Source of the DNA: Nanobdellota archaeon
GTDB taxonomy: Archaea; Nanobdellota; Nanobdellia; Pacearchaeales; GW2011-AR1
Length of the DNA stretch: 64,000 nt
Direction: 5' to 3'
Assembly (NCBI GenBank): GCA_027334715.1
Contig: DAHWUG010000001.1
Location: 15,324-79,323 of the forward strand
The notes under the pieces are model-generated. The model did not search any database. It saw only the letters and a list, made by a program, of their open reading frames with translations, and was not told the DNA's origin. Positions within the stretch are counted from its first letter, which is position 1. Each line of letters starts with the position of its first letter. Made by a program: the position numbers and the translations under genes. Below, piece after piece: positions 3,086 to 45,449 of this stretch.

Positions 3086-3577
3086 ATGACAACGACAACA
3101 ATACTACAAAGTTCTATTTTTACCGACTTTGCCTTTCCCTTCCTTTTAATATTCTTCATACTTTTCGGAATTCTTGAAAAGACAAAAGTTTTTGGTGACG
3201 ACAAACACACACTTAATGCGATGATTTCCTTTGTTGTCGGCCTGATTTTTGTGGCAGCTGTTTTTCCAAAGGTAATTGTTGGCAACCTGATACTTTTCCT
3301 TACTGTTGCAATTGTTGTTGTCTTCATAGCACTTTTGCTTTGGGGATTTATTTCCGGAGAAGCGCCCAAGGTTCCGGCAAAACTTCAGGCATTAATAGGA
3401 ATTGTGGTTGCAATCGCAGTTGTTATTGCCTTACTTTGGGCAATAGGGATTGCAACAAATATATTTGACTTTTTATTCAATTCAAGCTGGAGCTCAAGCT
3501 TTTGGACAAATTTTGCGTTTATTGCTGTCGTAATTATTGGAATGGCTGTTGCAATCGGTGGAAGCAAGAGTAAGTAA
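3086..3577 (+). CDS. integral membrane protein, paralog 1 of a tandem pair
   Basis: 163 aa; FGILEKTKVFGDDKHTLNAMISFVVGLIF core shared with the next ORF (FGILSRVNIFGENKGLNAVIALVVGLL). Confidence 0.5.
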   Translation: MTTTTILQSSIFTDFAFPFLLIFFILFGILEKTKVFGDDKHTLNAMISFVVGLIFVAAVFPKVIVGNLILFLTVAIVVVFIALLLWGFISGEAPKVPAKLQALIGIVVAIAVVIALLWAIGIATNIFDFLFNSSWSSSFWTNFAFIAVVIIGMAVAIGGSKSK

Positions 3578-3630
3578 TAATACCCTAAACAATTTCTATA
3601 TCACATTCTAGAAAACTATTTAAATAAGAT

Positions 3631-4215
3631 TTGATAAATTGTAATATGTTCGTTCATATTTTGAGCATGCAGTTTGCAGGTTTTTTCGGAGGTGATATCG
3701 GAAATCTTCTTGCTACAGCGGAACAAGCAGGAGTTTTCAGCTATGTACTGCCTTTCTTGTTAATTTTCGCGATTGTTTTTGGGATTTTGTCTAGAGTGAA
3801 TATTTTTGGTGAGAACAAAGGGCTTAATGCAGTCATTGCACTTGTTGTAGGACTTCTTTCATTGCAGTTCCAGCTTGTTCCTTTATTTTTCTCCCAAATA
3901 TTTCCAAATTTAGGAGTTGGTCTTTCCGTAATTTTGATTATGTTAATTTTACTAGGGCTATTTATGCCAGCAGATAAACCAAACTCAATGAATTACATCC
4001 TTCTTAGTGTAGCAGCAATAGTCTTTGTTATAATTGTTGCAAATTCATTTTCTAGCACAGGGTATTATGGATTTTCAGACATTATGTATTTTATTTATGC
4101 ACATTTGTCCGGAATAGTAATAACCCTTATAGTACTAATTGCAATAGGTGCTGTTATAGGTTCAAGCGGACCAAAAGCAAAACCATACACTGCAGTATAC
4201 CAAAAATCCCCATAA
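3631..4215 (+). CDS. integral membrane protein, paralog 2 of a tandem pair
   Basis: 194 aa; same conserved core as 3086..3577. Confidence 0.5.
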   Translation: MINCNMFVHILSMQFAGFFGGDIGNLLATAEQAGVFSYVLPFLLIFAIVFGILSRVNIFGENKGLNAVIALVVGLLSLQFQLVPLFFSQIFPNLGVGLSVILIMLILLGLFMPADKPNSMNYILLSVAAIVFVIIVANSFSSTGYYGFSDIMYFIYAHLSGIVITLIVLIAIGAVIGSSGPKAKPYTAVYQKSP

Positions 4216-4220
4216 ATTAA

Positions 4221-5087
4221 TTATCTTCTGGAAATTTTTCTTATTGTCTTTTTTGATTTTTGGACAAGAACATTGCCCTGGCTGTTTTTATTAGGGACTG
4301 TTTGCTGCGCAGGAATTTTCTGCCTGAATGCAGAAGTTTCTCTTTCCTCTGCCCTATCTGCAAGATTATTAACAACTTTCCCGAATGAATCCTGCATCAT
4401 CCCCATTTCTTTCTTTATTGATTCAAGACCATCACCATAACTTTCAACCTTGTCAAAAATTGATGCCTGAAGACTGTCAATTATACTCTCTATTTTTTTC
4501 AGCCTTTCTGAAATGTAATTAACTTTCGATTCCGTAAGAACTTTAAATTCATTCATTTCATCAATCTTTTTCTGTATTGGCTTATTTTTTTCCGAAAAAA
4601 CCTGTTCTGCAACTTCCATCATTGTGTCTGTATCAGGAGCTGCCATTGGCAGGTACCCGTAACTTTGTTGCGACTGCTCCTGCTGCATTTCAGGATACTG
4701 CTGATACTGCTGTTGCTGGGGGTAATAAACTTCTTGTGATCCATACATTTCTTCTCCGGGAATTTCCTTTGTTATCATTGCTGGCATAGTCATTACTGGT
4801 ATCCCATACCCTGTTCCTGGTTTTGGAGGAATAAGGTCTTCATCATTTATGTTTCCCTCTGTTGGAAGTCTGTCCGGTTCATCTTCATTGTCAAGAATTG
4901 AATGTTCCATTCCCTCTGTAGATTCATTTTGATTATCAATGCTTGAAACAGCACTTTTTATCTGTGCTCTGCTCATAGCGTCTGTAATATCTGCTGGGGA
5001 AGTACCTTGTTCTGTAAGCTTTTGAATTATGTCAGAATCAGAAACGCCCTTATTTTTTAATTCAACCACCTGGTCCAAAACACTCAT
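4221..5087 (-). CDS. hypothetical protein with N-terminal UBA-like helix bundle, Q/Y-rich low-complexity middle and C-terminal coiled coil
   Basis: 288 aa; QQQQYQQYPEMQQEQSQQSYGY low-complexity tract; sits next to the pilus locus. Confidence 0.5.
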   Translation of the reverse strand: MSVLDQVVELKNKGVSDSDIIQKLTEQGTSPADITDAMSRAQIKSAVSSIDNQNESTEGMEHSILDNEDEPDRLPTEGNINDEDLIPPKPGTGYGIPVMTMPAMITKEIPGEEMYGSQEVYYPQQQQYQQYPEMQQEQSQQSYGYLPMAAPDTDTMMEVAEQVFSEKNKPIQKKIDEMNEFKVLTESKVNYISERLKKIESIIDSLQASIFDKVESYGDGLESIKKEMGMMQDSFGKVVNNLADRAEERETSAFRQKIPAQQTVPNKNSQGNVLVQKSKKTIRKISRR

Positions 5088-5139
5088 TTTTGTTTTTATT
5101 CTCCTCTTTTTATTCTTTTTCCTATCTTCTATTATTTAA

Positions 5140-5550
5140 TTAGTCATTTAATTTTTTTAAATCTTTTTTTCTTACAAATTCCAAAGGCTGAAACATTTTT
5201 GCCTGTTTTGTAAGCAATTCAAGATCTTCTTTTCTGGCAAAATTTGAAAATTCGGCAGATGCACTTTCAAGAAATCCTACAAGCCTTTCCATATTTCTTT
5301 TTATTTCCCCTATCTCCTTTTTTATTTCAAGAATGTCCGAAGATGTTTTTTCCTTTGTTTCAATAAGATTCTGGCCTATAAGAAGGATTCTTTCCCTAAG
5401 CATTTTTTGCTTTTCTTCCATATCCCTGAAGCGCATGATTATATCTGCAAAAAAAGAATCATTATTTTGCTGGATTTCTGCCATATTTAGAAGAGCATGA
5501 AGCGGTTTAAATTTGTTGTGTTTACCGATATATTCATCTACAATATACAA
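5140..5550 (-). CDS. coiled-coil hypothetical protein
   Basis: 136 aa, heptad-rich, divergent from the pilus ATPase gene. Confidence 0.45.
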   Translation of the reverse strand: MYIVDEYIGKHNKFKPLHALLNMAEIQQNNDSFFADIIMRFRDMEEKQKMLRERILLIGQNLIETKEKTSSDILEIKKEIGEIKRNMERLVGFLESASAEFSNFARKEDLELLTKQAKMFQPLEFVRKKDLKKLND

Positions 5551-5582
5551 AGAATTTTAAACATCTCAGGCTTTTTTTTGAA

Positions 5583-7865
5583 ATGGCTGAACAAGAGGCG
5601 AAAATAGGCAGTTATGAGTCAAAAAGAGAAGGTGGAGAGGACATTCTTTACATAAATTACCTTGGCGCCCCATTTGTGCCCAATATTGCCGACCTTCCCG
5701 ATGTTATGGCAAAAACAATTGATGCACTTATAGAAAATCCAAATGTTTCAAGAGTTGTTTTTGTCCAGCAGAAGAATTACAATTATAATCTGGAAGAGAC
5801 ATCAATGCTTCTTGAAATTGCGCAGCTTTACAATTACTTTTCAAAGCAAGAAAGACTGCTTTCCAGAGAAAAAATAGGCGGGGTCGAACAATTTTTCCCG
5901 CAAAGATATAATGAGCTTTTTACTTTCATCATGATGCTAAAGCAGGACCCACTTGCAGCTTATTTTGAAATGAAAAAAATCCTGATAAATGCAAGAATAC
6001 TCCTCGATAACATAGGAACAAGGTATAAAATTGACCAGGCAGGATACATAAGCCTTATTGAAAGAATCGTTTCCCTGCTTGAGAACACTGTTTTGATACA
6101 AAAAGCAATGCCCTGGCTTTCTGATTACAGAAAAGGAGACAGGGAAATCTATGGAAGAATTTTCAGCCCTGATGTAATCCCTAATTTTACATTCACAAGA
6201 CTTATTTCTGATCTGCCTGAAGATGCAGAGATTGTTGACCAGTATGAAATTTCCGGAGATGGTTATGATGTTTCATTGGTAACTATTCTGAAGAAAATAG
6301 ATGAGTCAAAATTAATTTATCATGTGATTCCCCCAGAAAATACCTTAAGCGAAGATCATTCCGACTTATTGAACACTGCAAGAAAGGTTCTTATTGAGCA
6401 TCAGCCAAAAGCAGAAGAATTTACAGACACAGAAAGGACAAGGCAGGTTTTTTTCAATATCTCAAAAGATCTGCTTCAGGACTTAAGTCAAAGCAAGAAA
6501 ATAAATGTAAATTATTCTGACTTGAACAAGCTTGCAACAATTCTTGTCAGGCATACAATTGGATTCGGATTGATTGAGGTTTTGCTTCAGGATAAGAAAT
6601 TGCAGGATATCTCATTAAATGCGCCGATTTCAATGACTCCTATTTTTGTAAGGCATCAGGATTATGATGAATGCATTTCAAACATTTTGCCAAGCCAGGA
6701 AGATACTGACTCATGGGCTGCAAAGTTTAGGCTTGTTTCAGGAAGGCCCTTAGACGAGGCAAATCCAATACTTGACACCCAGCTTGAGATAGGGAAGATA
6801 AGGGCAAGAATTGCAATAATACAGAGGCCATTGAGCCCTGATGGACTGGCTTATGCAATAAGACGTCACAGAGAAGAACCATGGACACTTCCTCTTTTTG
6901 TTCAAAACAAGATGATGAACTCTTTTACAGCAGGTCTTATGAGCTTTTTAATTGACGGTTCAAGGACAATGCTTATTGCAGGAACGAGGAGCAGCGGAAA
7001 AACAAGTATACTTGGCAGTTTAATGTTGGAGATAATACCAAAATATAGGATTATTGTAATTGAGGATTCTCTGGAACTTCCTGTTGAATCACTAAAAGAC
7101 TTGAAATATGATATCTTGAGAATGAAAGTAAGAAGCGCATTGTTAAAAACAACAACAGAAGTTTCTGCAGATGATGGAATCAGGACAAGTCTAAGACTTG
7201 GGGACAGCTGTCTGATAATTGGAGAAGTAAGGAGTTTGGAAGCACAAGCACTTTATGAAGCAATGCGTGTAGGTGCTTTGGCAAATGTTGTCGCAGGTAC
7301 AATTCACGGTGCAAGTCCCTATGCTGTTTTTGACAGGGTTGTAAATGACCTTAATGTTCCAACAACTAGCTTTAAGGCAACAGATATAATAGCTGTTGCA
7401 AATCCGATAAAAACTCCTGATGGTTTGCACCAGTTCAAGAGGCTTGTGCAACTTTCTGAAGTAAGAAAAGAATGGAACAAAGACCCTCTTGATGAAAAAG
7501 GATTTGTTGATTTACTTAAATACAATGTAGAAAAAGACGAGCTGGAGCCGACAGAGGACTTGATAAACGGCGACAGCGAAATTGTCAAGGACATTGCCTC
7601 AAATGTTAAAGGATGGGCTGGAAACTGGGATGCTGTTTATGACAATATTCTTTTGAGGGCAAAAATCAAGCAGGAGATAGTTGATGTTGCAGAAAAAACA
7701 AAAAATTATAAAATTTTGGAAGCTGGCTTTAACACAGAAGCAAATCATGCATTTCACAGAATTTCAGATGAAATCAGAGAGGAAATTGGACTGCCTTTGG
7801 GAGAAAGGGTTTTTTCAGATTGGCAGAAATGGCTAAATCAAAAAGTTAAAGGGAAGAAAATCTAA
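5583..7865 (+). CDS. type II/IV secretion ATPase (FlaI/PilB/VirB11 family) of an archaeal type IV pilus system, with a long N-terminal extension
   Basis: 760 aa; Walker A GTRSSGKTS, Walker B IIVIEDS; Asp/His-box-like region GEVRSLEAQALYEAMRVGALANVVAGTIHG. Confidence 0.85.
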   Translation: MAEQEAKIGSYESKREGGEDILYINYLGAPFVPNIADLPDVMAKTIDALIENPNVSRVVFVQQKNYNYNLEETSMLLEIAQLYNYFSKQERLLSREKIGGVEQFFPQRYNELFTFIMMLKQDPLAAYFEMKKILINARILLDNIGTRYKIDQAGYISLIERIVSLLENTVLIQKAMPWLSDYRKGDREIYGRIFSPDVIPNFTFTRLISDLPEDAEIVDQYEISGDGYDVSLVTILKKIDESKLIYHVIPPENTLSEDHSDLLNTARKVLIEHQPKAEEFTDTERTRQVFFNISKDLLQDLSQSKKINVNYSDLNKLATILVRHTIGFGLIEVLLQDKKLQDISLNAPISMTPIFVRHQDYDECISNILPSQEDTDSWAAKFRLVSGRPLDEANPILDTQLEIGKIRARIAIIQRPLSPDGLAYAIRRHREEPWTLPLFVQNKMMNSFTAGLMSFLIDGSRTMLIAGTRSSGKTSILGSLMLEIIPKYRIIVIEDSLELPVESLKDLKYDILRMKVRSALLKTTTEVSADDGIRTSLRLGDSCLIIGEVRSLEAQALYEAMRVGALANVVAGTIHGASPYAVFDRVVNDLNVPTTSFKATDIIAVANPIKTPDGLHQFKRLVQLSEVRKEWNKDPLDEKGFVDLLKYNVEKDELEPTEDLINGDSEIVKDIASNVKGWAGNWDAVYDNILLRAKIKQEIVDVAEKTKNYKILEAGFNTEANHAFHRISDEIREEIGLPLGERVFSDWQKWLNQKVKGKKI

Positions 7866-7866
7866 A

Positions 7867-8571
7867 ATGAAAGGCCAACATTCTGAATTAGTCAAAGAGC
7901 ATTTTGATATTAAATACAAAGGTTATGACAAATTAATAAAAAAGCTCATTCCTAATTATGAAAGAATGCATAGCTTAATACTAAAAAACTTGCGTTTTAA
8001 TAAAGGTATAAAAATTAAAGTTCTTGACTTAGGTATTGGAACCGGAAAAACTTCTTTGGAAATTTTTTTAAAATTTCCAAATGCTAAAATTGATGGTGTG
8101 GATATTTCTAAAAACATGATTAAACAAGGCAAGCAAAGACTTAGAAATTATCTTTCTAGGCTGAGTTTTATAGAACAAGATGTAGCAAAGCTTAGTTTAC
8201 AGGGGAAGTATGATACTGCTGTTTCTGTATTATGCATACATCACCTAAATTCCAAACAAAAACAGATATTATTTTCTAAAGTTTTTGATTTATTAAAGTG
8301 GAATGGAATATTTATTATAGCTGACATCGTAAAATTTGATTCCAAAAAAGAAACAGCAAAAAATGAAAGTAAATGGAAACATTTTTTAATAAAAAATTTA
8401 GGGAAAAAAGAAGGGCAATATTGGTTTGATAATTACCTTGAAGAAGACTTGCCAAGCTCTGTTCGAAACCAATTAACATGGCTAAAAAAAGCTTATTTTA
8501 AAGAAGAGAAAGAAATTTTTGAACATATGAATTATTCAGTATTTTACGGAAAGAAAACTATAAACTTCTAA
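7867..8571 (+). CDS. class I SAM-dependent methyltransferase embedded in the pilus operon
   Basis: 234 aa; motif I VLDLGIGTGKTS; motif II/post-I DGVDIS; its start lies 1 nt after the ATPase stop. Confidence 0.7.
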   Translation: MKGQHSELVKEHFDIKYKGYDKLIKKLIPNYERMHSLILKNLRFNKGIKIKVLDLGIGTGKTSLEIFLKFPNAKIDGVDISKNMIKQGKQRLRNYLSRLSFIEQDVAKLSLQGKYDTAVSVLCIHHLNSKQKQILFSKVFDLLKWNGIFIIADIVKFDSKKETAKNESKWKHFLIKNLGKKEGQYWFDNYLEEDLPSSVRNQLTWLKKAYFKEEKEIFEHMNYSVFYGKKTINF

Positions 8572-8624
8572 AGATTTATTAATTGTTTTTAATTATAGAT
8601 ATCATTGATAAAAAGTGGTGAAAA

Positions 8625-10784
8625 ATGCCCCCTCCAAAAGATATAGATGAAATTATTGAAAAATACAAAGGAAAGATAGAGAGTCAGCTGGACACTTATG
8701 AAGAAAGGGATGTTGATTACACTCAGGAATATGTAAAATTCAAGAAAGAAATGTCTCCCGAGATTTCAAGATATGAGCGCTGGGCAAAAAGCCTTGGAAA
8801 CATAATCAAACTGAAAATTTCCGAAAAAGATTCTGTAGTTGTCAAAAGAAATCTTAACATTGCACATCTTGACATTGAACCTCAGCAGTCAGTCACCCTT
8901 AGTGCTATGGCTTTCCTAAGCGTTCTTTTTCTTGGAGTTTTGATTTCTGTCGCATGGTTTCTCATATCCGGCTCTTTCCCAATTTTATTTTTCTTGCTTG
9001 TTATGATGTTCTGTTTTTTTGTGTTTTATTTTGTAAGCGGATATCCTGCAAGACTTGCAAATTCCTGGAGACTGAAAGCAAGCAGCCAAATGGTTCCTGC
9101 AATACTTTACATAGTTGTTTACATGAGGCATACATCAAACCTTGAAAGAGCTGTTGCATTTGCATCAGATCATCTTGAATATCCTCTTGCCCTTGACTTC
9201 AAGAAAATTTTTTATGATGTTCAAATCGGAAAATTTGCAACAATAAAAGACAGTCTTGACAATTATCTTGAAACATGGAGAGACTACTCAATTGAGTTCA
9301 TAGAATCATTTCATCTTATAGAGAACAGCCTGTTTGAGCCAGATGATGCAATGAGAATTCAGACATTGGAGAAATCATTGAGTGTTGTTCTTGATGGGGT
9401 TTATGAAAAAATGCTTAAATTTACTTATGAGGTAAAAAATCCCTTGACAAATGTTTACATGCTAGGAGTTGTTTTGCCAACTCTTGGTTTAGCTCTTTTG
9501 CCCCTGGCTTCTGCAATGTTAGGTGGAATGCTGACATGGGTTCATGTTTTTATCCTTTTTGATTTGATAATTCCATTTTTAGTTCTTTATCTGACAGATA
9601 AAGTTTTATTTTTAAGGCCGGGCGGAAACGGAGATTCAAGCCTTCTTGAGAAAAATCCATTATATTATAAATACAAAAACAAAAAGCCTTATTTCAAGGC
9701 ATTTTTCATTGCTTTCCCCTTTTTATTAATTGGATTATTGCCCTTCATTTTCCAGTTCACTCCCTTACCTCAGGCATTTGGCATGCCAAAAGATTTTACT
9801 TTTTCGCAGATTGGGCTTGGAATTCTGGGCGGAAATGCTAATTTCTTTGACTTCAGGACAAACGATGCAGGGGGGTTAGTCGGGCCATTTGGCGTAGGAG
9901 CCCTGCTTTTGAGCATATTGATCCCATTGAGCATTGCATTGTTCTTTTCAATTGTATATAAAGAGAAGACAAAAGAGCTTATAGTTGAAAGAAAGAAAAC
10001 AAACCAGCTTGAAGCTGAATTTAATAATTCATTATTCCAGCTTGGAAATACAATAGGAAATGGAACACCTCCCGAAATAGCATTTGGTAAAGTTGCAGAA
10101 GCTTCAAAAGGTCTGATTACAGAGGATTTCTTCAACAGAGTTAATTACAACATAAGGCAAATGGGCATGAGTATTGAAAAAGCACTTTTTGACTCAAAAA
10201 GAGGCGCTGTAATATACTATCCATCTAACTTAATTTCGACAAGCATGAAAATACTTGCTGAATCTTCCAAAAAAGGGCTGCAGATTGCAGCTTTGAGCTT
10301 AATGAGCATTTCAGAATATGTAAAAAACATGAACAAAGTAACTGCAAGGCTTAAAGACCTTTTGGCAGAAGTTATTTCTGACATGAAATCAAACATGTCT
10401 TTCCTTGCTCCCTTGCTTTCAGGAGTTGTTGTTGGACTTGCTGCCATGATAACATCTATTTTAGTCAAGATGGACATAATAAAATCTCTTGGAGGAAGTG
10501 TAGTAGCAAGCTTGGGAACTTTGGCAAATATAGTCAGCATATTTCAGGTCTCTGACATGATTCCCCCATATTTTCTGCAAGTAATCATTGGAATTTATCT
10601 TATTGAGATTGTTTTTATTTTAACCCGCGCTCTTGTTGTGATTGATTCCGGAGAAGACAAGCTTGAAAAAACAAGCAAGACGGGAAAAAATCTTACAAGT
10701 GCTATTCTTCTTTATGCAATAACTGCATTTTTGTCAATAATTGTCTTATTTGTTCTTGTGTCAATAGTTGTTGTCAGTAGTTAG
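8625..10784 (+). CDS. FlaJ/TadC-like polytopic membrane platform protein (T2SS-F domains)
   Basis: 719 aa; many TM segments with two cytoplasmic domains; lies between the ATPase and the pilins. Confidence 0.75.
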   Translation: MPPPKDIDEIIEKYKGKIESQLDTYEERDVDYTQEYVKFKKEMSPEISRYERWAKSLGNIIKLKISEKDSVVVKRNLNIAHLDIEPQQSVTLSAMAFLSVLFLGVLISVAWFLISGSFPILFFLLVMMFCFFVFYFVSGYPARLANSWRLKASSQMVPAILYIVVYMRHTSNLERAVAFASDHLEYPLALDFKKIFYDVQIGKFATIKDSLDNYLETWRDYSIEFIESFHLIENSLFEPDDAMRIQTLEKSLSVVLDGVYEKMLKFTYEVKNPLTNVYMLGVVLPTLGLALLPLASAMLGGMLTWVHVFILFDLIIPFLVLYLTDKVLFLRPGGNGDSSLLEKNPLYYKYKNKKPYFKAFFIAFPFLLIGLLPFIFQFTPLPQAFGMPKDFTFSQIGLGILGGNANFFDFRTNDAGGLVGPFGVGALLLSILIPLSIALFFSIVYKEKTKELIVERKKTNQLEAEFNNSLFQLGNTIGNGTPPEIAFGKVAEASKGLITEDFFNRVNYNIRQMGMSIEKALFDSKRGAVIYYPSNLISTSMKILAESSKKGLQIAALSLMSISEYVKNMNKVTARLKDLLAEVISDMKSNMSFLAPLLSGVVVGLAAMITSILVKMDIIKSLGGSVVASLGTLANIVSIFQVSDMIPPYFLQVIIGIYLIEIVFILTRALVVIDSGEDKLEKTSKTGKNLTSAILLYAITAFLSIIVLFVLVSIVVVSS

Positions 10785-10816
10785 GAACTACTTAAGAAAA
10801 AAACATTTATTAACTA

Positions 10817-10999
10817 TTGTTAATTTTATCGGGTATGCATGAAAAAAGGAGAAAAAAGGAAAAAAAAGGAATTGTTTCTGACTATTTACCTTGGCTACTA
10901 ATAGCCATTGCAATTCTGGTGATTCTTATGATAGCAATATTTGTGCTTAAAAACCAAGGAACATCTCTTATTGATAAATTAAAGGGGCTTTTTGGATAA
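10817..10999 (+). CDS. small pilin-like protein with class III signal
   Basis: KKEKKG then IVSDYLPWLLIAIAILVILMIAIFVL hydrophobic stretch. Confidence 0.4.
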   Translation: MLILSGMHEKRRKKEKKGIVSDYLPWLLIAIAILVILMIAIFVLKNQGTSLIDKLKGLFG

Positions 11000-11168
11000 A
11001 ATGCTAACAGAAGAGCAGCTGATAAAAATTATTCTGGGGGTTTTGGTTTTTGTAGCAGTTATTGTTGGAGTTTATCTTATCTTCAAGAACAATATTCTTG
11101 ATTTTTTTAATAATCTTGGCGGCAACGCAGGACAAACAGGAGGATTAATCTTGTCCTTGCTGAAATAA
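11000..11168 (+). CDS. small pilin-like/TM protein (55 aa, below the ORF-track cutoff)
   Basis: MLTEEQLIKIILGVLVFVAVIVGVYLIFKNNILDFFNNLGGNAGQTGGLILSLLK; ATG overlaps the previous stop (TAAAATG). Confidence 0.35.
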
Positions 11169-11169
11169 A

Positions 11170-11646
11170 ATGGACAAAAATGGATTTCTTCTTGCAGAAG
11201 AAACTCTGAAGATAGTAATTGCCGTGATTGCAATAGGATTCCTGGCCTATTTTCTTGTTTCACTTTATTTTTCTGCGAAGACATCATCACAATCAGAACA
11301 AGCTAAATCAACTTTGCCGTTTATCATGAATGCAATAAACTCCTCAAACCAGAGTGTGGATATTTACAATCCAAAAGGATGGTTAATATCAATATGGCCC
11401 CATTCAGTAACATCAGGAATAGGACCATTTAAATCAACTAACATAGAAATGCCAAACTTATGCAAAAATACAGGGTTGCAAACATGCATTTGCATATGTA
11501 GCTCAGACAGTGCAAGTAGTTGTGACAGTAGCGGAACTTGCATGGACAATCTTGGTTTTGGGGTAAAAGGAACTTTGATCAAAATAAACAATCCTCCTAT
11601 CACAGTTAACATTGACCAAAAAAATAAAATAATAAGCTTACAATAA
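11170..11646 (+). CDS. pilin-like protein, Cys-rich C-terminal domain
   Basis: MDKNG then FLLAEETLKIVIAVIAIGFLAYF (pilin-type N-terminus with Glu at +5/+6); CICICSSDSASSCDSSGTC. Confidence 0.6.
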   Translation: MDKNGFLLAEETLKIVIAVIAIGFLAYFLVSLYFSAKTSSQSEQAKSTLPFIMNAINSSNQSVDIYNPKGWLISIWPHSVTSGIGPFKSTNIEMPNLCKNTGLQTCICICSSDSASSCDSSGTCMDNLGFGVKGTLIKINNPPITVNIDQKNKIISLQ

Positions 11647-11648
11647 AA

Positions 11649-11750
11649 ATGGATCTAGATGAGATGATTAAATATGTAATATGGATTTTTTTTGCGATTA
11701 TCGCACTTTTAGGAATTTATTTTCTCCTGAAAAACATAGGAATAATGTAA
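11649..11750 (+). CDS. very small TM peptide (33 aa), possible minor pilin
   Basis: MDLDEMIKYVIWIFFAIIALLGIYFLLKNIGIM; tightly packed between pilin genes. Confidence 0.3.
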   Translation: MDLDEMIKYVIWIFFAIIALLGIYFLLKNIGIM

Positions 11751-11752
11751 AA

Positions 11753-12487
11753 ATGAAAATGATAAAAAGAAAAGACGGGGAATTAACAACACAGCAAATT
11801 GTCATCCTTATTGTCCTTATTGTAAGTTTTGTCATAATCCTTTTTTTATTGTTCAGGTTGAACCTTGGTGGAACAACAAGCGAGGAGATTTGTCATAATT
11901 CAGTTGTATTGAAAGGACAGTCGAGCATTACTTCAGGGTCATTGAACTGTAAGACAGATTATCTTTGCATTTCCGGAGGTGGAAAATGTCAGAGCTTTTC
12001 CGCATCAAATACAATGAAGGTACAACAAGGAAATAAAACACAAGTAATGAAAATTTTGGCAGATGAAATGTCTGCATGCTGGTATGAGTTTGGGGAAGGT
12101 CAAATTAATTATGCAAGCAGCACAATTACTGGAAATAAAGCATGTGCCTTATGCTCAATTGTGAACTTTGACACAAGCTTAAAGAACACTAATATATCCT
12201 ATGAGAATTTTTACAATTACTTAAGGACCACTAAAAAAACAGATTCACAGACTTACCTTCAATATCTTTATTCTACAAGTAATTTAACAGATTTCAATAA
12301 ATTTTACTTATCAGGATACCTCAATAATAACATAGACCCAAGTAAAGAATACTTTATCCTAACTGGCATATCAAAAAAGCCTGTTTGGGGATTTTTTGGA
12401 AGCACCCAGATTCCTGTAACAATTATGGAAAAAACAACCCAAAATTACAACACAATAGGATGCGATGAATTTTTGACAAAAGCCTAA
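11753..12487 (+). CDS. pilin-like protein (start trimmed relative to the ORF track)
   Basis: MKMIKRKDG then ELTTQQIVILIVLIVSFVIILFLLF; the ORF-track start at 11681 overlaps the upstream peptide in another frame. Confidence 0.5.
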   Translation: MKMIKRKDGELTTQQIVILIVLIVSFVIILFLLFRLNLGGTTSEEICHNSVVLKGQSSITSGSLNCKTDYLCISGGGKCQSFSASNTMKVQQGNKTQVMKILADEMSACWYEFGEGQINYASSTITGNKACALCSIVNFDTSLKNTNISYENFYNYLRTTKKTDSQTYLQYLYSTSNLTDFNKFYLSGYLNNNIDPSKEYFILTGISKKPVWGFFGSTQIPVTIMEKTTQNYNTIGCDEFLTKA

Positions 12488-12488
12488 A

Positions 12489-12941
12489 ATGATAAGAGGA
12501 AAAAGACAAAAAAAGAGGAATTTTTTTAACTATAATTTTCATCCAAAAAATTCTAAAGGGAATATCCTTACTGAAAATGTGATTTTTATTGTCCTTAACA
12601 TTGTTTTTATTTCTATTCTCTTGGTTTTTATTTTTGTAAAATCAGGAAGTGCTGCTGTTCTTGAGGAAAAATACGCAAAGGAAATTGCCCTTCTAATTGA
12701 TGAATCCCAACCAGGAATGACTATACATCTAAACATGCAGGATGCAATAGGCATCGCAAAAGGGAATAATATTGCCACTGCAGCAATAGTAAGAATAAAT
12801 AAAAATGTGGTTACTGTAAAGCTGAGAGGCAATGGTGGTTATAGCTATTCTTTTTTCAATGATGTCCAATTTGGTGATGGAAAATCAAATTATCATCCGG
12901 ATAACACAAACACCGGATTTGTTTTTATAATTGGGGGATAA
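12489..12941 (+). CDS. pilin-like protein
   Basis: basic N-terminus ending NSKG, then NILTENVIFIVLNIVFISILLVFIFV. Confidence 0.55.
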   Translation: MIRGKRQKKRNFFNYNFHPKNSKGNILTENVIFIVLNIVFISILLVFIFVKSGSAAVLEEKYAKEIALLIDESQPGMTIHLNMQDAIGIAKGNNIATAAIVRINKNVVTVKLRGNGGYSYSFFNDVQFGDGKSNYHPDNTNTGFVFIIGG

Positions 12942-13455
12942 AATGAAAAATAAAAAAGGAGCAGACAAAATACTTTCAGTGTACTGGTTTTTTATCCTCT
13001 TTTTAGTTGCAGCAGCCATAGTTTATATGGTAGCTTCTTTTTACGGAAAGCCTTATGATATAAGGGGCATTGAAGCGGGAATACTTGCAGACAGAGCAGC
13101 AGACTGCGTTTCTTATGCAGGTTACTTAAGGGATGGAGTTTTAAATTCTGATTTTCAACAAAACCTGCTTTCAAGATGCAATCTTAATTTTAATACAGAA
13201 GATGCATACAACTGGAATCAGCAAGGCCAATATTTTTTGGACATAAGCATTTACGATTTTAACTCTTATCCTAATTCGAATGCACTGCTTGAAGCTTCTG
13301 CAGGAAATCCCGATCTGAAGGATTTTTGCGGAGCTAAAGGAAATACAAACCCACTTTGCCTGCAACGGGAGTTTTACACTATAGACAAAAGTGGTAAGCA
13401 GTATGTAGTAAGAATAACATCTGTTGTAAGAAAAACCGAAAAAAATGTACAATAA
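12931..13455 (+). CDS. pilin-like protein
   Basis: MKNKKG then ADKILSVYWFFILFLVAAAIVYMVASF; 4 Cys in the globular part. Confidence 0.55.
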   Translation: MGDKMKNKKGADKILSVYWFFILFLVAAAIVYMVASFYGKPYDIRGIEAGILADRAADCVSYAGYLRDGVLNSDFQQNLLSRCNLNFNTEDAYNWNQQGQYFLDISIYDFNSYPNSNALLEASAGNPDLKDFCGAKGNTNPLCLQREFYTIDKSGKQYVVRITSVVRKTEKNVQ

Positions 13456-13981
13456 AATAAGAAAAACTAAGAAAGCGCAAATAGGGGAAACAATGACATG
13501 GGTATTTGCAACAATAATAATTATAGTCATACTTGTTATTTCAATATTTATTGCATCCCACTATTTGGGAAAAATAAAGCTGATTACAATGCCCACTTCT
13601 GGCCAGAGCTATGACCTTCCTATTGCGAAATCTTTTTATTCATATCTTTTAACAAAAAATGAATCAGGACAGACTGTTTATTCCCAGATTGAAAAAGACA
13701 AGAATCTTAATGATTTCGATGGCAATCTTTCCCTTGACTTATTCAATGGTCAAGAAAAAATTAAGACCTATCAGGGGTCAGGTATAAATTCCCCTCTTGT
13801 GTGGCTTGGTGCAATAAAAATATCATCTCAAAATCCAAATGGGATAGGGGTGGAAAACAAGTATTTTGGACCTCAAGATTTTGGCATTACTTCAAATAAT
13901 CTTCAATTTTATGAACTAATAAAAATAAATGAAAATGAGTCAGTCAGTCTTGTAGTTTCATCCTCTTCAAACGTAAAATGA
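13445..13981 (+). CDS. pilin-like protein
   Basis: RKTKKA then QIGETMTWVFATIIIIVILVISIFIA. Confidence 0.5.
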   Translation: MYNKIRKTKKAQIGETMTWVFATIIIIVILVISIFIASHYLGKIKLITMPTSGQSYDLPIAKSFYSYLLTKNESGQTVYSQIEKDKNLNDFDGNLSLDLFNGQEKIKTYQGSGINSPLVWLGAIKISSQNPNGIGVENKYFGPQDFGITSNNLQFYELIKINENESVSLVVSSSSNVK

Positions 13982-14283
13982 CAAAACTGATTAATAATAA
14001 AAAAGGAGATATACCGGTGACAATTCTTGTACTTGGTGTTGTTTTGATATGCATCCTTACTATCGCAAGCTTTTTTTTCGCATCATATCATGTAAATAAG
14101 AATTTTGATATAAGGATAATAAAAGAAATAAGTCTTGCAAAAGAGAAAATAGACTTTTATCAAAATGTAGGTGTTAGCAGAGACCAGGCAGACTCTTTTG
14201 TTGGAGTAAAAACAGACACTCAGGGAAAAAGATATCTTTATTACAATTGGAGCTCTATATCTGTAAGATACAACCTCCCTTGA
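13978..14283 (+). CDS. pilin-like protein
   Basis: NNKKG then DIPVTILVLGVVLICILTIASFFFA. Confidence 0.55.
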   Translation: MTKLINNKKGDIPVTILVLGVVLICILTIASFFFASYHVNKNFDIRIIKEISLAKEKIDFYQNVGVSRDQADSFVGVKTDTQGKRYLYYNWSSISVRYNLP

Positions 14284-14320
14284 CAATAACATTTTTAAAC
14301 AAAATAAACCTAAATTAAAT

Positions 14321-14668
14321 ATGGAAAGCAAAAGGGGCCAGGAGCTTAGCACCAATGCAATTATTATGATTGTCATTGGAATAATTGTGCTTGTTGTTCT
14401 TATTCTTGGCTTTACAATAGGCTGGGACAAGCTTCTTCCATTCTTTTCAACAAACAACGTGCAAAACATACAAACAACATGCAGTTCTGCATGCGCCACA
14501 GGAAATCAGTATGATTACTGCTCTTTACCAAGAACTTTGAAAGCATCTGACCTGCCTGGAAATCCTTCTAATGGCCAAGTTGTAGGAAATTGTACATTCT
14601 TTGCAACTAATCCCAACTATCAGAAGTATGGAATAGGTGTATGTGACACAATAACCTGCAGTTCTTAA
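14321..14668 (+). CDS. pilin with canonical archaeal class III signal (RG/QE), Cys-rich
   Basis: MESKRG then QELSTNAIIMIVIGIIVLVVLILGF; 9 Cys in 115 aa; candidate major pilin. Confidence 0.65.
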   Translation: MESKRGQELSTNAIIMIVIGIIVLVVLILGFTIGWDKLLPFFSTNNVQNIQTTCSSACATGNQYDYCSLPRTLKASDLPGNPSNGQVVGNCTFFATNPNYQKYGIGVCDTITCSS

Positions 14669-14712
14669 TTCTTATCTGAAATATTTTTAAAGAAACTTCC
14701 TCTTAAAGTGTA

Positions 14713-14823
14713 ATGGATTATGGATTTTCTGAAAGAAGGAACAAAAGAAAGAGCAAGAAAAAGGAAAACAGAAAGCATCCTTACAGAAAAGGCGGTGGGC
14801 ATAGGTCAATGGAAAAGAAATAA
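14713..14823 (+). CDS. tiny highly basic ORF (36 aa) inside the pilus locus, speculative
   Basis: MDYGFSERRNKRKSKKKENRKHPYRKGGGHRSMEKK; no homology recognised. Confidence 0.15.
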   Translation: MDYGFSERRNKRKSKKKENRKHPYRKGGGHRSMEKK

Positions 14824-14899
14824 TGAAGAATTTTAATATAAAGCCGAATGAATAAATTTTACTCGTGCATTTTATAAATTAGAATTACAATATCCTCTT

Positions 14900-15745
14900 A
14901 TGATAGAAATAATCTTCCTTTTTATACTGGGTCTTTTTTGGATTATTTTTGCAACTGTTCAGGATGTAAGAACAAAGGAAATAGCAAACTGGCTTAATTT
15001 TTCTCTTATAATCTTTGTTCTTGGATTCAGGTTCTTTTATTCCCTTTTTTCTGCAGGCAATTTCAGCTTTTTTTATCAGGGCCTTATAGGGCTTGTAATC
15101 TTCTCTGTTCTGGGAAATTTGTTTTATTACGGAAGAATGTTTGCAGGAGGAGATGCAAAACTTCTTATTGCCCTTGGTCCCCTAATCCCCCTTTCTGATG
15201 TTTTTTCAGTAAACTTTGGAAATTTTGTCATGTTCCTTCTTGTCTTCCTTTTTGCAGGAGCTCTTTATAGCATAACTGTCAGCGTGAGCCTTGGCATAAA
15301 AAACAGAAAGAAATTTGGAAAAGAGTTTAAGAATCAATTCAAAGAAAATAGAAAAATAATTATTTCTTTTTTAGTTCTTAGCATAATACTTATCATTTTA
15401 AGCTATTTAGACGGATTATTTTTGTACCTGGGAATACTGACTTTTATCCTGCCTTATCTTTACATTTATGCTAAAAGTGTCGACGAAATTTCAATGATAA
15501 AGAATGTTTCAGTTTCTGCGCTTAAAGAGGGGGACTGGCTTTATCATAATATTAAAATTGGCTCCAAAACAATAAAGGCAACATGGGATGGATTGAACAT
15601 GAGAGAAATAAATTTGCTCAGAAAAAAACGCAAGAATGGGAGAGTCAGGATCAGGGCAGGAGTTTTTTTCACGCCTGTTTTCTTCATAAGCTACCTTGTC
15701 TTCTTTTATTTTTGGTATATTGGATTAAGGTATTCTTTTTGGTAG
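14900..15745 (+). CDS. A24-family prepilin/prearchaellin peptidase (PibD/FlaK-like)
   Basis: 281 aa polytopic; TVQDVRTKEI and GGDAKLLIALG catalytic Asp motifs. Confidence 0.75.
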   Translation: MIEIIFLFILGLFWIIFATVQDVRTKEIANWLNFSLIIFVLGFRFFYSLFSAGNFSFFYQGLIGLVIFSVLGNLFYYGRMFAGGDAKLLIALGPLIPLSDVFSVNFGNFVMFLLVFLFAGALYSITVSVSLGIKNRKKFGKEFKNQFKENRKIIISFLVLSIILIILSYLDGLFLYLGILTFILPYLYIYAKSVDEISMIKNVSVSALKEGDWLYHNIKIGSKTIKATWDGLNMREINLLRKKRKNGRVRIRAGVFFTPVFFISYLVFFYFWYIGLRYSFW

Positions 15746-35577: not shown

Positions 35578-35668
35578 ATTTATTAGCCTGATTTGAGTTT
35601 TTTATTTTTATTTGATGTTTTCCTCCTATTCTAACAAAATTTATATACGTAATTTGCATGTTTTTTAT

Positions 35669-44711: not shown

Positions 44712-44795
44712 TGCGGGAGATAGGATTCGAACCTATGCAAGCACTAAGCTAATGGGTCCTAGGCCCACTCCGTTTGACCACTCCGGCACTCCCGC
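44712..44795 (-). tRNA. tRNA-Leu (type II, anticodon UAG), unusual C33
   Basis: acceptor GCGGGAG/CTCCCGC, long variable arm, anticodon loop CCTAGGA, T loop TTCGAAT. Confidence 0.65.
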
Positions 44796-45449
44796 ATTAA
44801 ATAAGTTTGCATATTGTGGTTTAAAAGTTATTCCATAATACTCTTTTCTATACTTTTTATGAACCCATTTATCTTTTAAAATAGGAACTTTAAGGCTATT
44901 AAAAATTGAATCTAAATCCTTCCACATTTGTTTGCTTGCAGTTGATAACCCATAACCCCTCCTTCTTTTTCCCCCCTCTGTCGCTAATAATCCCTTAAGG
45001 AAGGCTATTTTAATCTCTTTGTTTGAGTTTAAAATACATTTTGGAATTTTTACTACATCACTCTTCTTCCCTGAAGGAATCCCAAAAACATTTTTTAATA
45101 AATTATAAATTGCTTTACTATCAATGCACATGTGATATGTTTGCTGTTTACCTTCTCTTAATTTTACTTTTGTGACATTAAATTTTCTGTTAAATAGACT
45201 AACACATAATTTTGATATATGCTTTATCAGATTCCAATTTGTTAATTCTATTGTTGTTTGAGTCTTACTTTTTTTTAGATGACCATCCCCTATAATACAC
45301 CCGACAAAAAATGCTAACTCATCATTGATATACAAAGGAATTTTTGTTAGTTTTGAAGGACCGTATTTTGCTTTAACAAAGATTTTTTTATTATTTCTTG
45401 AAATTACATTTAATCCATTTTGAGAATTAATTACATCTTTTTTGTACAT
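44733..45449 (-). CDS. LAGLIDADG homing endonuclease, free-standing; ORF tail reads into tRNA-Leu
   Basis: Two LAGLIDADG motifs LAFFVGCIIGDGHL and IAFLKGLLATEGG; the last ~21 codons overlap the tRNA 5' half. Confidence 0.65.
   Translation of the reverse strand: MYKKDVINSQNGLNVISRNNKKIFVKAKYGPSKLTKIPLYINDELAFFVGCIIGDGHLKKSKTQTTIELTNWNLIKHISKLCVSLFNRKFNVTKVKLREGKQQTYHMCIDSKAIYNLLKNVFGIPSGKKSDVVKIPKCILNSNKEIKIAFLKGLLATEGGKRRRGYGLSTASKQMWKDLDSIFNSLKVPILKDKWVHKKYRKEYYGITFKPQYANLFNAGVPEWSNGVGLGPISLVLA

Follow-up and report, generated by a model that had tools for sequence, protein, structure and literature searches.

Described systems related to the locus

The Epd pilus of Methanococcus maripaludis (TFF system 1, clade 1) depends on a peptidase of the EppA type, and its pilins carry the DUF361/Class_III_signal motif QxSxExxxL. 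In bacteria, the type IVa pilus and the type II secretion system use five to six minor pilins or pseudopilins. These sets (FimU-PilVWXE; GspH-K) are encoded in a fixed order, and their members have a common leader and N-terminal helix and individual heads. Archaeal loci of the clade-1/Epd type are clusters of 11 genes with at least five minor pilins (PMC4858521; bioRxiv 10.64898/2026.04.22.720090). Several minor pilins of the Epd system are essential, its major pilin has no globular part, and the system 1 class has also been reported in some DPANN archaea (bioRxiv 10.64898/2026.04.22.720090; PMC4858521). System 1 is defined by two platform genes (bioRxiv 10.64898/2026.04.22.720090). Makarova et al. 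(2016) placed the "nanoarchaeal" ATPases in subclade 4F, together with the euryarchaeal/halobacterial type IV pilus systems; one specific component of this subclade is an intracellular coiled-coil protein, arCOG07564, and the pilins cognate to the nanoarchaeal ATPases were not identified in that census (PMC4858521).

Pacearchaeota are uncultured, with metabolic capacities among the smallest of the DPANN lineages. Apparently, they live attached to hosts, with pili-like appendages as the suspected contact structures, and both such appendages and a strong host attachment have been reported for groundwater DPANN/Pacearchaeota (PMC7906910).

Gene content of the locus

The window analyzed here is a stretch of 64,000 nucleotides from a Nanobdellota archaeon of the Pacearchaeales (contig DAHWUG010000001.1, positions 15,324 to 79,323). 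Judged from its sequence, it carries a real type IV pilus-like gene cluster that is complete; the archaeon is tiny, host-dependent and of the DPANN/Pacearchaeota. The completeness claimed in the preliminary description is borne out: an ATPase, a platform, a prepilin peptidase and substrates of the class III type were all found. The ATPase and platform genes on one side and the peptidase gene on the other flank ten small open reading frames, a total that includes the 33-aa frame at 11649-11750. Neighboring genes overlap or follow each other closely. In public annotation, every small protein, as well as the platform, is "hypothetical" or nameless; the locus is a previously unannotated example of a known machine type and, biologically, a system of an expected kind. 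The features are as follows (a slash marks the predicted cleavage point).

3086..3577, plus strand: mem163, membrane protein with four TM segments, paralogue of mem194 and candidate accessory, found in 52 related loci
3631..4215, plus strand: mem194, membrane protein with five TM segments (TM scan), paralogue of mem163, candidate accessory component
4221..5087, minus strand: Q-rich soluble protein, 288 aa, candidate cytoplasmic accessory protein; 52 related loci
5140..5484, minus strand: soluble helical protein, 114 aa, candidate cytoplasmic accessory; the frame reaches 5550 from an upstream TTG
5583..7865, plus strand: predicted assembly ATPase, 760 aa, T2SSE/TadA/FlaI superfamily, N-terminal extension of about 200 aa
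7867..8571, plus strand: class I SAM methyltransferase, 234 aa (Pfam Methyltransf_31/25/12/11), between ATPase and platform
8625..10784, plus strand: putative platform, 719 aa, polytopic, divergent T2SSF (PilC/TadC/FlaJ) member with about nine hydrophobic segments
10835..10999, plus strand: p1, 54-aa prepilin-like protein (MHEKRRKKEKKG/IVSDYLPW...), candidate Flp/EpdE-like major subunit
11001..11168, plus strand: p2, 55-aa leaderless single-TM micro-protein (M-LTEEQLIK...), no prepilin
11170..11646, plus strand: p3, 158-aa prepilin-like protein (MDKNG/FLLAEETLK...), six conserved cysteines including CxCxC
11649..11750, plus strand: p4, 33-aa leaderless single-TM micro-protein (MDLDEMIKY...), paralogue of p2
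11753..12487, plus strand: p5, prepilin-like protein of about 244 aa (MKMIKRKDG/ELTTQQ...), largest of the set, eight conserved cysteines
12489..12941, plus strand: p6, 150-aa prepilin-like protein with a long, 24-aa leader (...KRQKKRNFFNYNFHPKNSKG/NILTEN...)
12943..13455, plus strand: p7, 170-aa prepilin-like protein (MKNKKG/ADKILSVYW...), four conserved cysteines
13445..13981, plus strand: p8, 178-aa prepilin-like protein (...KTKKA/QIGETMTW...)
13978..14283, plus strand: p9, 101-aa prepilin-like protein (...NNKKG/DIPVTILV...)
14321..14668, plus strand: p10, 115-aa prepilin-like protein (MESKRG/QELSTNAII...), six conserved cysteines
14713..14823, plus strand: highly basic micro-ORF, 36 aa (...RNKRKSKKKENRKHPYRKGG...), conserved, candidate member only
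14900..15745, plus strand: predicted A24 prepilin/preflagellin-type aspartic peptidase, 281 aa (Pfam Peptidase_A24)

ATPase, platform and peptidase

The ATPase matches Pfam T2SSE (E 4.9e-13, 48.9 bits for a cut-off of 24.9). Its matches in the PDB are the archaeal GspE2 (2OAP), CpaF (E 4.9e-20) and FlaI, the first two being stronger than the last. The N-terminal ~200 residues fall outside the Pfam and PDB matches, in agreement with the extended N-terminus first noticed in this 760-aa protein. Among NCBIfam models, FlaI (the best, with 123.8 bits) and TadA both stay under their equivalog cut-offs. None of the four motifs (Walker A, Asp box, Walker B, His box) varies among the 59 orthologues. 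On these data, the predicted secretion ATPase belongs to the TadA/FlaI/GspE2 class and its catalytic motifs are intact.

The platform is more divergent. Taken alone, the protein of the window has no direct match in Pfam, NCBIfam or the PDB, and Pfam T2SSF is reached only at E 6.8. However, of 57 platform relatives, defined as those matching the family profile at E<=1e-68, 20 match T2SSF individually (best E 3.2e-10, covering 4-125 of the 125 positions of the domain). The T2SSF domain of the N-terminal half is visible in relatives; overall, two T2SSF-like regions are present, at about 150-280 and about 470-590. The best PDB match of the family profile is GspF/EpsF (E 0.31), aligned on the cytoplasmic-domain motif, and the AlphaFold model, with a pLDDT of 49, is unusable for fold comparison. 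The proposed FlaJ/TadC-type platform of 719 aa holds in this indirect form, as a divergent T2SSF family member that the profiles tie to T2SSF only via distant relatives. The family is carried by more than 530 GTDB species.

The 281-aa protein that had been taken for an A24 prepilin peptidase indeed matches Pfam Peptidase_A24 (E 3.8e-10, 40.6 bits for a cut-off of 26.5). D22 and G83-G84-D85 are the same in all 51 orthologues, which points to an A24 aspartic peptidase that retains both catalytic aspartates. Within NCBIfam it is FlaK-like (41.5 bits); EppA is not among its family matches, and no methyltransferase domain was detected in it with Pfam.

Small proteins and class III signals

A short basic leader that closes with N-K-[KR]-[GA] precedes a hydrophobic helix of ~20 residues in eight of the ten small proteins (p1, p3 and p5-p10), whose hydrophobic windows score 2.5-3.7. 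The eight processing motifs originally listed (KG/I, NG/F, DG/E, KG/N, KG/A, KA/Q, KG/D and RG/QE) are all present. A class III architecture had been attributed to each small gene, and the count of ten pilins followed from it: the architecture (basic leader, G or A at -1, helix of ~20 residues) is found in these eight, whereas p2 (11001-11168) and p4 (11649-11750) have neither leader nor site, and the count of ten has to be given up.

In seven of the eight families, 98-100% of the orthologues have G or A at -1: 69/69 for p1, 67/67 for p3, 62/62 for p5, 60/61 for p6, 47/47 for p9 and 47/48 for p10, while p8 has A in 31 and G in 18 (n = 49). The exception is p7: with the G split by a shift of one residue in the alignment, just 34/58 are counted with G or A. 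K or R at -2/-3 and N at -4 (44/47 in p9) are common across the prepilin-like families. The position of the acidic residue varies from +1 to +6, with no fixed E5; it is E at +5/+6 in p3 and at +5 in 44/61 of p6. A strict FlaFind-style pattern, [KRDE][GA][ALIFQMVED][ILMVTAS]x3, is matched by p5 (DGELTT) alone among the ten, the other frames being rejected because of polar residues at +2 to +5. This strict pattern speaks against the signal in all but p5; the -1 position in seven families speaks for it.

The best conserved of the small proteins is p1, with a median identity of 64% and a length of 54 aa in public assemblies, too. Its predicted mature form of 42 aa has no globular domain; besides K/R at -2/-3, Y at +5, P at +7 and W at +8 are conserved. 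In the orthologues of p5, the start lies just ahead of NKKG/ELTT. The long-leader variant of p6 is common to the loci L001, L007 and L009. In p8, Q occupies +1 in 44/49 and W occupies +8 in 49/49. The same Q at +1 is found in 47/48 orthologues of p10, whose archaeal class III signal is, by sequence, predicted to be the most canonical one among the eight; in their Q at +1, p8 and p10 resemble EppA substrates.

The likeness among the prepilin-like families is confined to leader and helix, and the heads are mutually unrelated (hhalign). The N-terminal half of p3 resembles p6 (96.7%). Four of the seven proteins with heads contain conserved cysteines in even numbers: six in p3 (columns 90-100% conserved), eight in p5 (92-100%), four in p7 and six in p10 (96-100%). 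The Cys-rich globular parts remarked on at the outset are thereby confirmed as conserved columns. Because the cysteines are conserved and even-numbered, these four heads are probably extracytoplasmic. For p7, whose identical 170-aa product is found in public databases, an AF2 model (pLDDT 88.2, pTM 0.75) has helix 5-34, a break, helix 41-56 and four beta-strands. This order of elements, helix then sheet, is pilin-like, but the model has no significant Foldseek match in the PDB, including any solved pilin. None of the small proteins has a Pfam match to Pilin_N, Class_III_signal (DUF361), Arch_flagellin or Flp, nor a sequence match to solved pilins in the PDB search, and the family profile of p10 matches no Pfam or PDB pilin family.

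The two leaderless proteins are paralogous (hhalign 96%). Orthologues of p2 begin with M(E)LT.EQLIK, without basic leader or G/A site; the match of p2 to Pfam Flp1_like is weak (19.6 bits for a cut-off of 33.5) and occurs in only 5/29 members. Basic leader and G/A site are equally missing in p4, which is kept in 58 loci with 54% identity. In the divergent locus L038, the p4-equivalent frame has the leader MVKKLDRKG/E.

Conservation and gene order

Conservation of the small frames, named beforehand as a check, was counted in 83 related loci and gene order was compared in 50 related species loci. All ten are present as conserved frames in 47-69 of the 83, and they form ten distinct 1:1 orthologous families. 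The order from p1 to p10 is identical in 38/50 loci, and the block terminates in the A24 peptidase gene in 38/50. Among the ten genes, there was no sign of tandem duplication, silent cassettes or repeats. This pattern is far beyond chance. The eight pilin-like proteins are a fixed set, in the same order across hundreds of related species, and not a variable repertoire.

The machine itself is conserved nearly like RadA: the median identity of the ATPase is 76%, compared to 80% for RadA, and that of the platform (66%) equals Hef. This degree of conservation suggests that the machine may be central to the lifestyle of these archaea. Some loci deviate. L054 and L060 keep ATPase, platform and peptidase, with glycosyltransferase genes at the position of the pilin block, and a distant clade (L086/L089) has the ATPase-platform pair without adjacent pilins.

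Comparison with the described systems

With the Epd pilus, the locus shares the multi-gene cluster, the ATPase, the platform, the dedicated peptidase and a candidate major subunit, p1, that likewise has no globular domain. The major Epd pilin, on the contrary, is encoded outside its cluster. In place of the two platform genes of system 1, one 719-aa gene with two T2SSF-like regions is found here, the small proteins lack Class_III_signal/DUF361, and the peptidase is nearest to FlaK (below cut-off), not to EppA. An assignment to the Epd type/system 1 was rejected on the single platform gene, the missing Class_III_signal and the sequence of p10, which has Q at +1 but reads QGLSTNAI.

The bacterial Tad/Flp pilus has in common with the locus an ATPase of the CpaF/TadA class, a tiny head-less major subunit (here the candidate p1), larger proteins resembling pseudopilins and an A24 peptidase that stands alone. 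The acidic-Tyr pair behind the cleavage site of p1 (G/IISDY) is, to our reading, reminiscent of the Flp motif G/XXXXEY, although D/E-Y stands at +4/+5 in p1 and at +5/+6 in Flp. Bacteria have TadB and TadC as two proteins, in contrast to the one fused platform gene here; the locus has no secretin or other outer-membrane component, and eight substrates instead of three. The Tad/Flp type was also discarded, as no Flp Pfam match exists, Flp1_like is only weakly matched by p2 and the platform is single and fused.

Subclade 4F has its coiled-coil protein arCOG07564, and the locus has conserved soluble helical proteins beside the ATPase; the PilA-family (Pilin_N) major pilins typical of the 4F systems are absent. 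As in the minor sets of type IVa pili and type II secretion, distinct proteins in conserved order have only leader and helix in common. Sequence or Foldseek similarity to those sets is lacking, however; the leader motif, like the peptidase, is archaeal in type, and the acidic residue lies anywhere from +1 to +6 instead of at a fixed E5. Compared with the numbers of minor pilins in Epd-type loci and in bacteria given above, the description of the repertoire as "unusually large" is not supported.

Proposed filament and alternative explanations

The best explanation, in which we have good confidence, is that the locus encodes one type IV pilus-like filament machine of a Pacearchaeota-type DPANN archaeon. 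The A24 peptidase would cut the prepilins behind G/A at the cytoplasmic face of the membrane, and the ATPase, acting via the platform, would extract the processed subunits from the membrane and polymerize them through their N-terminal helices. The head-less, best-conserved p1 (~42 aa when mature) is the most likely bulk subunit, which would form a thin fiber like those of Flp or EpdE. The seven proteins with family-specific heads may be minor pilins with fixed roles in priming, at the tip or in adhesion, whereas p2, p4, the pair of helical proteins from the cytoplasm and both polytopic mem paralogues are putative lineage-specific accessories for assembly or regulation. We read the locus as a type IV filament system that has about seven minor pilins and, possibly, one major pilin of the Flp-like kind, and a heteropolymeric fiber of major and minor pilins is plausible. 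Its biological role would likely be host-cell attachment; the literature makes a use in cell-cell contact plausible (PMC7906910).

The same machine might instead build a short pseudopilus, of the kind used in type II secretion or competence, with eight low-abundance pseudopilins as a piston or short fiber for protein secretion or for the uptake of DNA or nutrients from the host. Eight distinct subunits in fixed order would suit this, and GspG-K and ComGC-GG are comparable fixed sets. No subunit is duplicated and no typical globular major pilin stands out; for host-dependent organisms without most biosynthesis, import would be valuable (PMC7906910). However, the architecture of p1 is exactly that of head-less major pilins of the Flp/EpdE type, the locus contains no ComEC/ComEA-like gene and no gene for a secreted cargo, and pili-like appendages have been observed on ultrasmall groundwater cells (PMC7906910), so that a pseudopilus is rather improbable. 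It is very unlikely that the small proteins are uncleaved, type II signal-anchored surface or membrane proteins, with the true pilins encoded elsewhere. The missing sequence and fold matches to known pilins, the failure of the strict FlaFind-style pattern for most of them and the ATPase-platform pairs without adjacent small genes (distant clade, L054 and L060) are in its favor, but plain anchors require positive charges and no near-invariant G/A at one position. Here, this residue is common to eight otherwise unrelated families, in ~50 species each, and a peptidase gene closes the block in most loci (38/50).

The variable or switchable fiber of the preliminary description, made from a large repertoire, has the many pilin-like genes behind a single machine on its side. 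Yet, each gene is its own 1:1 orthologous family, the order is the same across species (38/50 loci) and the heads are unrelated. Distinct families in fixed order without tandem duplication indicate dedicated structural roles and no switching repertoire, and we consider this version extremely unlikely. An archaellum locus for motility, for which the best NCBIfam matches (FlaI for the ATPase, FlaK for the peptidase) could be quoted, has a practically negligible chance: these matches are far from their cut-offs (124 bits vs. 550 and 41.5 vs. 330), and GspE2/CpaF outranks FlaI in the PDB. The archaellum was ruled out by the lack of archaellin (PF01917), FlaH, FlaF, FlaG and FlaCDE among the proteins of the locus. 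A bindosome was equally ruled out, with no SBP or other Pfam domain in the small proteins and 60 bits for the BasE ATPase model (cut-off 1000).

For the filament machine preferred here, a stronger version can be formulated, which is unlikely but deserves mention: all Pacearchaeales would share one essential, near-invariant host-contact organelle with a thin, head-less, Flp-like fiber of the 42-aa p1, a seven-member cap or primer, and a driving ATPase-platform pair that works with a new accessory module. If true, a seven-member pilin-like complex, four members of which have conserved cysteine sets, would recognize or penetrate the host envelope. The accessory module would consist of two helical proteins in the cytoplasm, two or three polytopic mem paralogues and the leaderless, "pre-matured" pilin-like micro-proteins p2 and p4, and the set would represent the pilins that the 2016 census missed for the "nanoarchaea". 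At present, the analysis provides a conserved parts list, the processing motif N-K-[KR]-[GA], a candidate major subunit and a candidate accessory module; these are usable for annotating more than 500 species genomes.

Upstream and interspersed genes

In the Q-rich protein, a domain of about 50 aa at the N-terminus is conserved, and the C-terminal part is helical and resembles a coiled coil. The protein has no TM segment and no family match, and its PDB matches are merely weak ones of the coiled-coil type. Orthologues of the 114-aa helical protein are 114-115 aa long, with a median identity of 64%; family and PDB searches gave no match for it, nor did Pfam and NCBIfam for mem163. In the distant clade, of 40-52% identity, the Q-rich, coiled-coil and mem-paralogue genes stay beside the ATPase-platform pair while the other neighbors differ. 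The Q-rich gene adjoins the ATPase there (27-42% identity over two segments), the 114-aa protein is kept, and two to three mem paralogues lie at the same place, upstream of the Q-rich, coiled-coil, ATPase and platform genes. This agrees with the accessory role first suggested for the Q-rich and coiled-coil proteins, whose genes appear to belong with the pilus locus.

Three features were absent from the preliminary description: the two conserved membrane-protein genes at 3086-4215, the methyltransferase at 7867-8571 and the basic frame at 14713-14823. The methyltransferase has no credible orthologue in the 83 loci, a 246-aa frame in the same slot of L040 being only 23.6% identical. Nothing occupies the slot in L004, which is the closest relative, or in about 25 others; elsewhere it holds LPG_synthase_TM genes or uvrABC. 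By this distribution, the gene is strain-specific cargo in a variable slot and no component of the system. For the basic 36-aa frame, an HP[YF][KR]KG motif is found in frames of 31 loci, in the strict form KHPY[KR]KGG in 29. It mostly lies 0-50 nt upstream of the peptidase gene and is kept in L054 and L060, where the pilin block is absent.

The filament locus and its conservation

The genes between 4221 and 15745 make up a real and complete locus for a type IV filament. It is strongly conserved, and its pilin-like and accessory families are currently without annotation.

Features of the locus
4221-5087, minus strand: Q-rich protein, 288 aa
5140-5484, minus strand: helical protein, 114 aa
5583-7865, plus strand: ATPase, 760 aa (Pfam T2SSE)
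7867-8571, plus strand: SAM methyltransferase, 234 aa
8625-10784, plus strand: membrane protein (platform), 719 aa
10835-14668, plus strand: ten small ORFs, p1 to p10
14713-14823, plus strand: basic ORF, 36 aa
14900-15745, plus strand: peptidase, 281 aa (Pfam Peptidase_A24)

The two Pfam matches confirm the ATPase and the prepilin peptidase named in the preliminary description. The G+C content of the window is ~35%, and the locus is flanked by archaeal housekeeping genes (Hef helicase, EF-1beta, an RPA-like protein and RadA). Apart from tRNAs, no RNA families were found in the window with Rfam. A LAGLIDADG-type homing endonuclease ORF (44733-45449, minus strand) adjoins a tRNA (44712-44795) and the TFB gene (45538-46473).

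A database look-up gave no exact-sequence match for the ATPase; p7 is present with identical sequence in public assemblies, which hence contain the same locus. The platform has more than 3,000 homologues, the named sources being metagenome-assembled genomes of Pacearchaeota, Nanoarchaeota and Woesearchaeota. When one genome was scanned for each GTDB species, at least 532 species proved to have a platform relative, and 80 loci were retrieved. The source of the window is hence a Pacearchaeota-type DPANN archaeon. When the window proteins were compared by BLASTP with all ORFs of 83 related loci, all ten small-ORF families were recovered, even the 33-aa p4, each in 47-69 loci and with median identities ranging from 37% to 64%; many of the loci without a given family are truncated contigs. 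The small ORFs are thus conserved as ORFs in relatives. The exact order p1 to p10 is kept in 38 of the 50 loci having both platform and peptidase, and this fixed order does not agree with the "variable" fibre suggested earlier. In one relative, L001, public gene callers give ORFs of matching size, with 51, 53, 167, 33, 247, 150, 171, 177, 101 and 112 aa.

A shared leader on eight small proteins

According to per-family alignments, eight of the ten families converge on one short leader, M-x-N-K-[KR]-[GA]. At position -1, seven families have G or A in 69/69, 67/67, 62/62, 60/61, 49/49, 47/47 and 47/48 of their sequences; for p7, an alignment shift of one residue obscures this column. K or R occupies -2 and -3, and N predominates at -4. 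The residues following the cleavage site are conserved inside each family and different between families (IISDYLPW, FLLAEETL, ELTTQQ, NILTEN, GDKIISVYW, QVGETMTW, DIPITILV and QGLSTNAI), and an acidic residue somewhere in +1 to +6 is kept by seven of the eight, p10 usually being without it. Comparison with hhalign confined the likeness between families to leader and helix, except for p3 and p6, which have ~75 residues in common, and for p2 and p4. Simple anchoring in the membrane would require no near-invariant small residue at one position in eight unrelated families, a pattern that is explained by a shared peptidase site. All eight cleavage-type motifs listed in the preliminary description were found; the class III leader that it ascribed to all ten small ORFs holds for these eight and fails for p2 and p4, which are leaderless. 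Only p5 passes a strict FlaFind-style regular expression, the other small ORFs failing because polar residues occupy +2 to +5. The failure is ascribed to the pattern itself, which was drawn too narrowly for proteins of this kind.

The proteins p2 and p4 are not prepilins. Their sequences begin without any leader, at M(E)LT.EQLIK and M[DN]L[DE]E.IKY, respectively; each has one hydrophobic helix plus a short tail, and the two are mutual paralogues. A Flp1_like match of p2 was rejected as generic, as it was obtained for 5 of 29 members, every one below the cut-off. At the divergent locus L038, the ORF in the p4 position does have a leader, MVKKLDRKG/E, so p2 and p4 may, judging by sequence, derive from pilin-like genes. 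They are putative small assembly accessories.

Conserved cysteines are even in number in p3 (six), p5 (eight), p7 (four) and p10 (six), which fits extracytoplasmic heads, as is also reported of other components of archaeal T4P (PMC4858521). A lone cysteine of p9, C25 (window 14047-14052 region), lies within the hydrophobic helix and is conserved in 96% of orthologues.

A structure model of p7, built with 74 homologues (pLDDT 88.2, pTM 0.75), consists of a helix (5-34), a break at the conserved FYG.PYD, a second helix (41-56), short helices and four beta-strands, an order of elements as expected for a pilin. Foldseek gave no significant match for it in the PDB, the best (E 0.04) being ribosomal proteins. 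The p10 family profile gave only transmembrane-helix noise against the PDB and Pfam.

A longer leader variant, "KRQKKRNFFSYNF..KN.[KR]G", occurs on p6 of the window (12489-12560) and of the related loci L001, L007 and L009, as well as on p3 of L007 and p10 of L013. This recurrence on different pilin families across species suggests leader exchange or a sequence-specific role of the extended leader.

ATPase, platform and peptidase

The core of the ATPase (~216-651) aligns with A. fulgidus GspE2, CpaF and FlaI. About 200 N-terminal residues lie outside it, in line with the extended N-terminus reported earlier; such extensions are on record for archaeal TFF ATPases outside the archaellum (bioRxiv 10.64898/2026.04.22.720090). 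The Walker A motif (G467-x4-GKT), Asp box, Walker B motif and His box are invariant in 59/59 orthologues, like D22 and G83-G84-D85 of the peptidase in 51/51. Cross-species identity of the ATPase is 76%, against 80% for RadA, and that of the platform, 66%, equals Hef.

The window platform has no match in Pfam, NCBIfam or the PDB, its sole trace being T2SSF at E 6.8 over residues 472-585. An exhaustive profile search gave 1,148 representative clusters. Among 57 diverse full-length members examined (23-62% identity to the window protein), 20 match T2SSF individually, with a best E of 3.2e-10, and in several of these 20, the match spans the whole domain in the N-terminal half (~150-280). The close family profile had zero matches in the PDB; a broadened profile found the cytoplasmic domain of GspF/EpsF as its best, weak match (E 0.31), in an alignment centred on the motif QLa..l.sG.Pl.eaL. 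These matches, together with ~nine hydrophobic segments, indicate by sequence a divergent PilC/TadC/FlaJ-type platform with two T2SSF-like regions. An AlphaFold model from a shallow alignment of 16 sequences was unusable (pLDDT 49).

Boundaries of the system

A metagenome scan that used one distant protein as its query recovered four loci of a distant clade, with identities of 52% for the ATPase and 40% for the platform. Two to three paralogues of mem163/mem194 (membrane-protein genes at 3086-4215 in the window), the Q-rich gene and the helical gene adjoin the ATPase and platform in unchanged arrangement, and the outer neighbours differ from those of the window. The five upstream genes, kept beside the machine at this distance, are probably its accessories, and the suggestion that the Q-rich and putative coiled-coil proteins serve as such is strengthened by this linkage. 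Searches of the PDB with these two proteins gave nothing informative. Directly upstream of the ATPase, the distant clade has an ORF of 48-52 aa (MGKKAISATIDEELIKW...KYRNKSHLIEVAIELL; L086 7508-7654, L089 7467-7616, L087 85-243), which by eye is like a ribbon-helix-helix regulator and is missing from the window.

After the platform, none of the four distant loci has small pilin genes or a peptidase. The pilin block and the peptidase are fused to the machine only in the Pacearchaeales-type lineage. Other genes replace the ten small genes in two related loci, L054 (12268-14197) and L060 (12289-16681), which retain the ATPase, platform, basic micro-ORF and peptidase; their pilin block is elsewhere in the genome or lost. 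At least two of the replacement genes are glycosyltransferase-like, as judged by eye from N-terminal sequences.

The micro-ORF (14713-14823, plus strand), just 5' of the peptidase gene, is extremely basic. It measures 34-43 aa in relatives, is conserved in at least 31 related loci with the consensus ...KRNK.K.K.KE.KKHPY[KR]KGG..R, and is kept even in loci without the pilin block.

The methyltransferase gene, overlooked in the preliminary description, occupies a slot between the ATPase and platform genes (window 7867-8571; L001-L083) that is variable, an insertion hotspot. L004, the closest relative (90% identity), and ~25 other loci have nothing in the slot; it is filled by an LPG_synthase_TM gene in about a dozen, by uvrA-uvrC-uvrB in L054 and L060, by inserts of 3-10 kb in L013 and L031, and by other genes elsewhere. 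A role as pilin N-methylase, like that of bacterial PilD, was considered for the methyltransferase. The 83 related loci contain no credible orthologue, the one candidate being a 246-aa ORF in the same slot of L040 with just 23.6% identity. Since the slot also carries unrelated genes in other loci, the methyltransferase is cargo and not a pilin methylase.

Comparison with known systems and proposed function

Archaeal loci with several pilins are familiar: at least five minor pilins are present in clade-1 loci, and 11 genes make up the epd cluster of M. maripaludis (PMC4858521; bioRxiv 10.64898/2026.04.22.720090). The number of pilin-like genes is hence at the upper end of normal, rather than the "unusually large" repertoire claimed before. 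The locus lacks the defining features of system 1, having a single platform gene and no DUF361 motif, and of Tad/Flp, having no Flp family match; those of the archaellum and the bindosome are missing as well. Nanoarchaeal ATPases were placed by Makarova et al. in subclade 4F, whose loci include an intracellular coiled-coil protein, and the pilins that go with these ATPases could not be recognized (PMC4858521). The present locus may supply these missing pilins.

From established knowledge of type IV filaments, the prepilins would insert with the basic leader staying inside the cell, and the A24 peptidase would cleave after G/A. The ATPase, acting via the platform, would then lift the subunits from the membrane into a helical fibre held by their N-terminal helices. 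The first and most conserved small protein of the block, p1, has a predicted mature form of ~42 aa with no head, resembling the head-less major pilins of Epd and Tad/Flp, and is tentatively the likeliest candidate for the bulk subunit. The seven headed proteins would be putative minor pilins with fixed roles. GspK is a tip pseudopilin, and p10, usually without the early acidic residue, might speculatively recall such proteins. The most plausible function is host attachment, proposed because Pacearchaeota are reported to associate strongly with hosts and because pili-like appendages have been seen on ultrasmall groundwater cells (PMC7906910).

Outside the locus, an ORF at 35612-37516 (plus strand) is listed with 634 aa; its likely start at 35669 gives a ~615-aa protein with the N-terminus MRFRRGENSKKG/QVTVFIIIAVMIVSLALGY, a K-K-G leader and hydrophobic helix of the same kind as those of the locus pilins. 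An ORF of 2,385 aa (37518-44675, plus strand) follows directly, and neither has a Pfam match. One possibility is that the ~615-aa protein is an additional, large substrate for the peptidase; another is that it is an adhesin.
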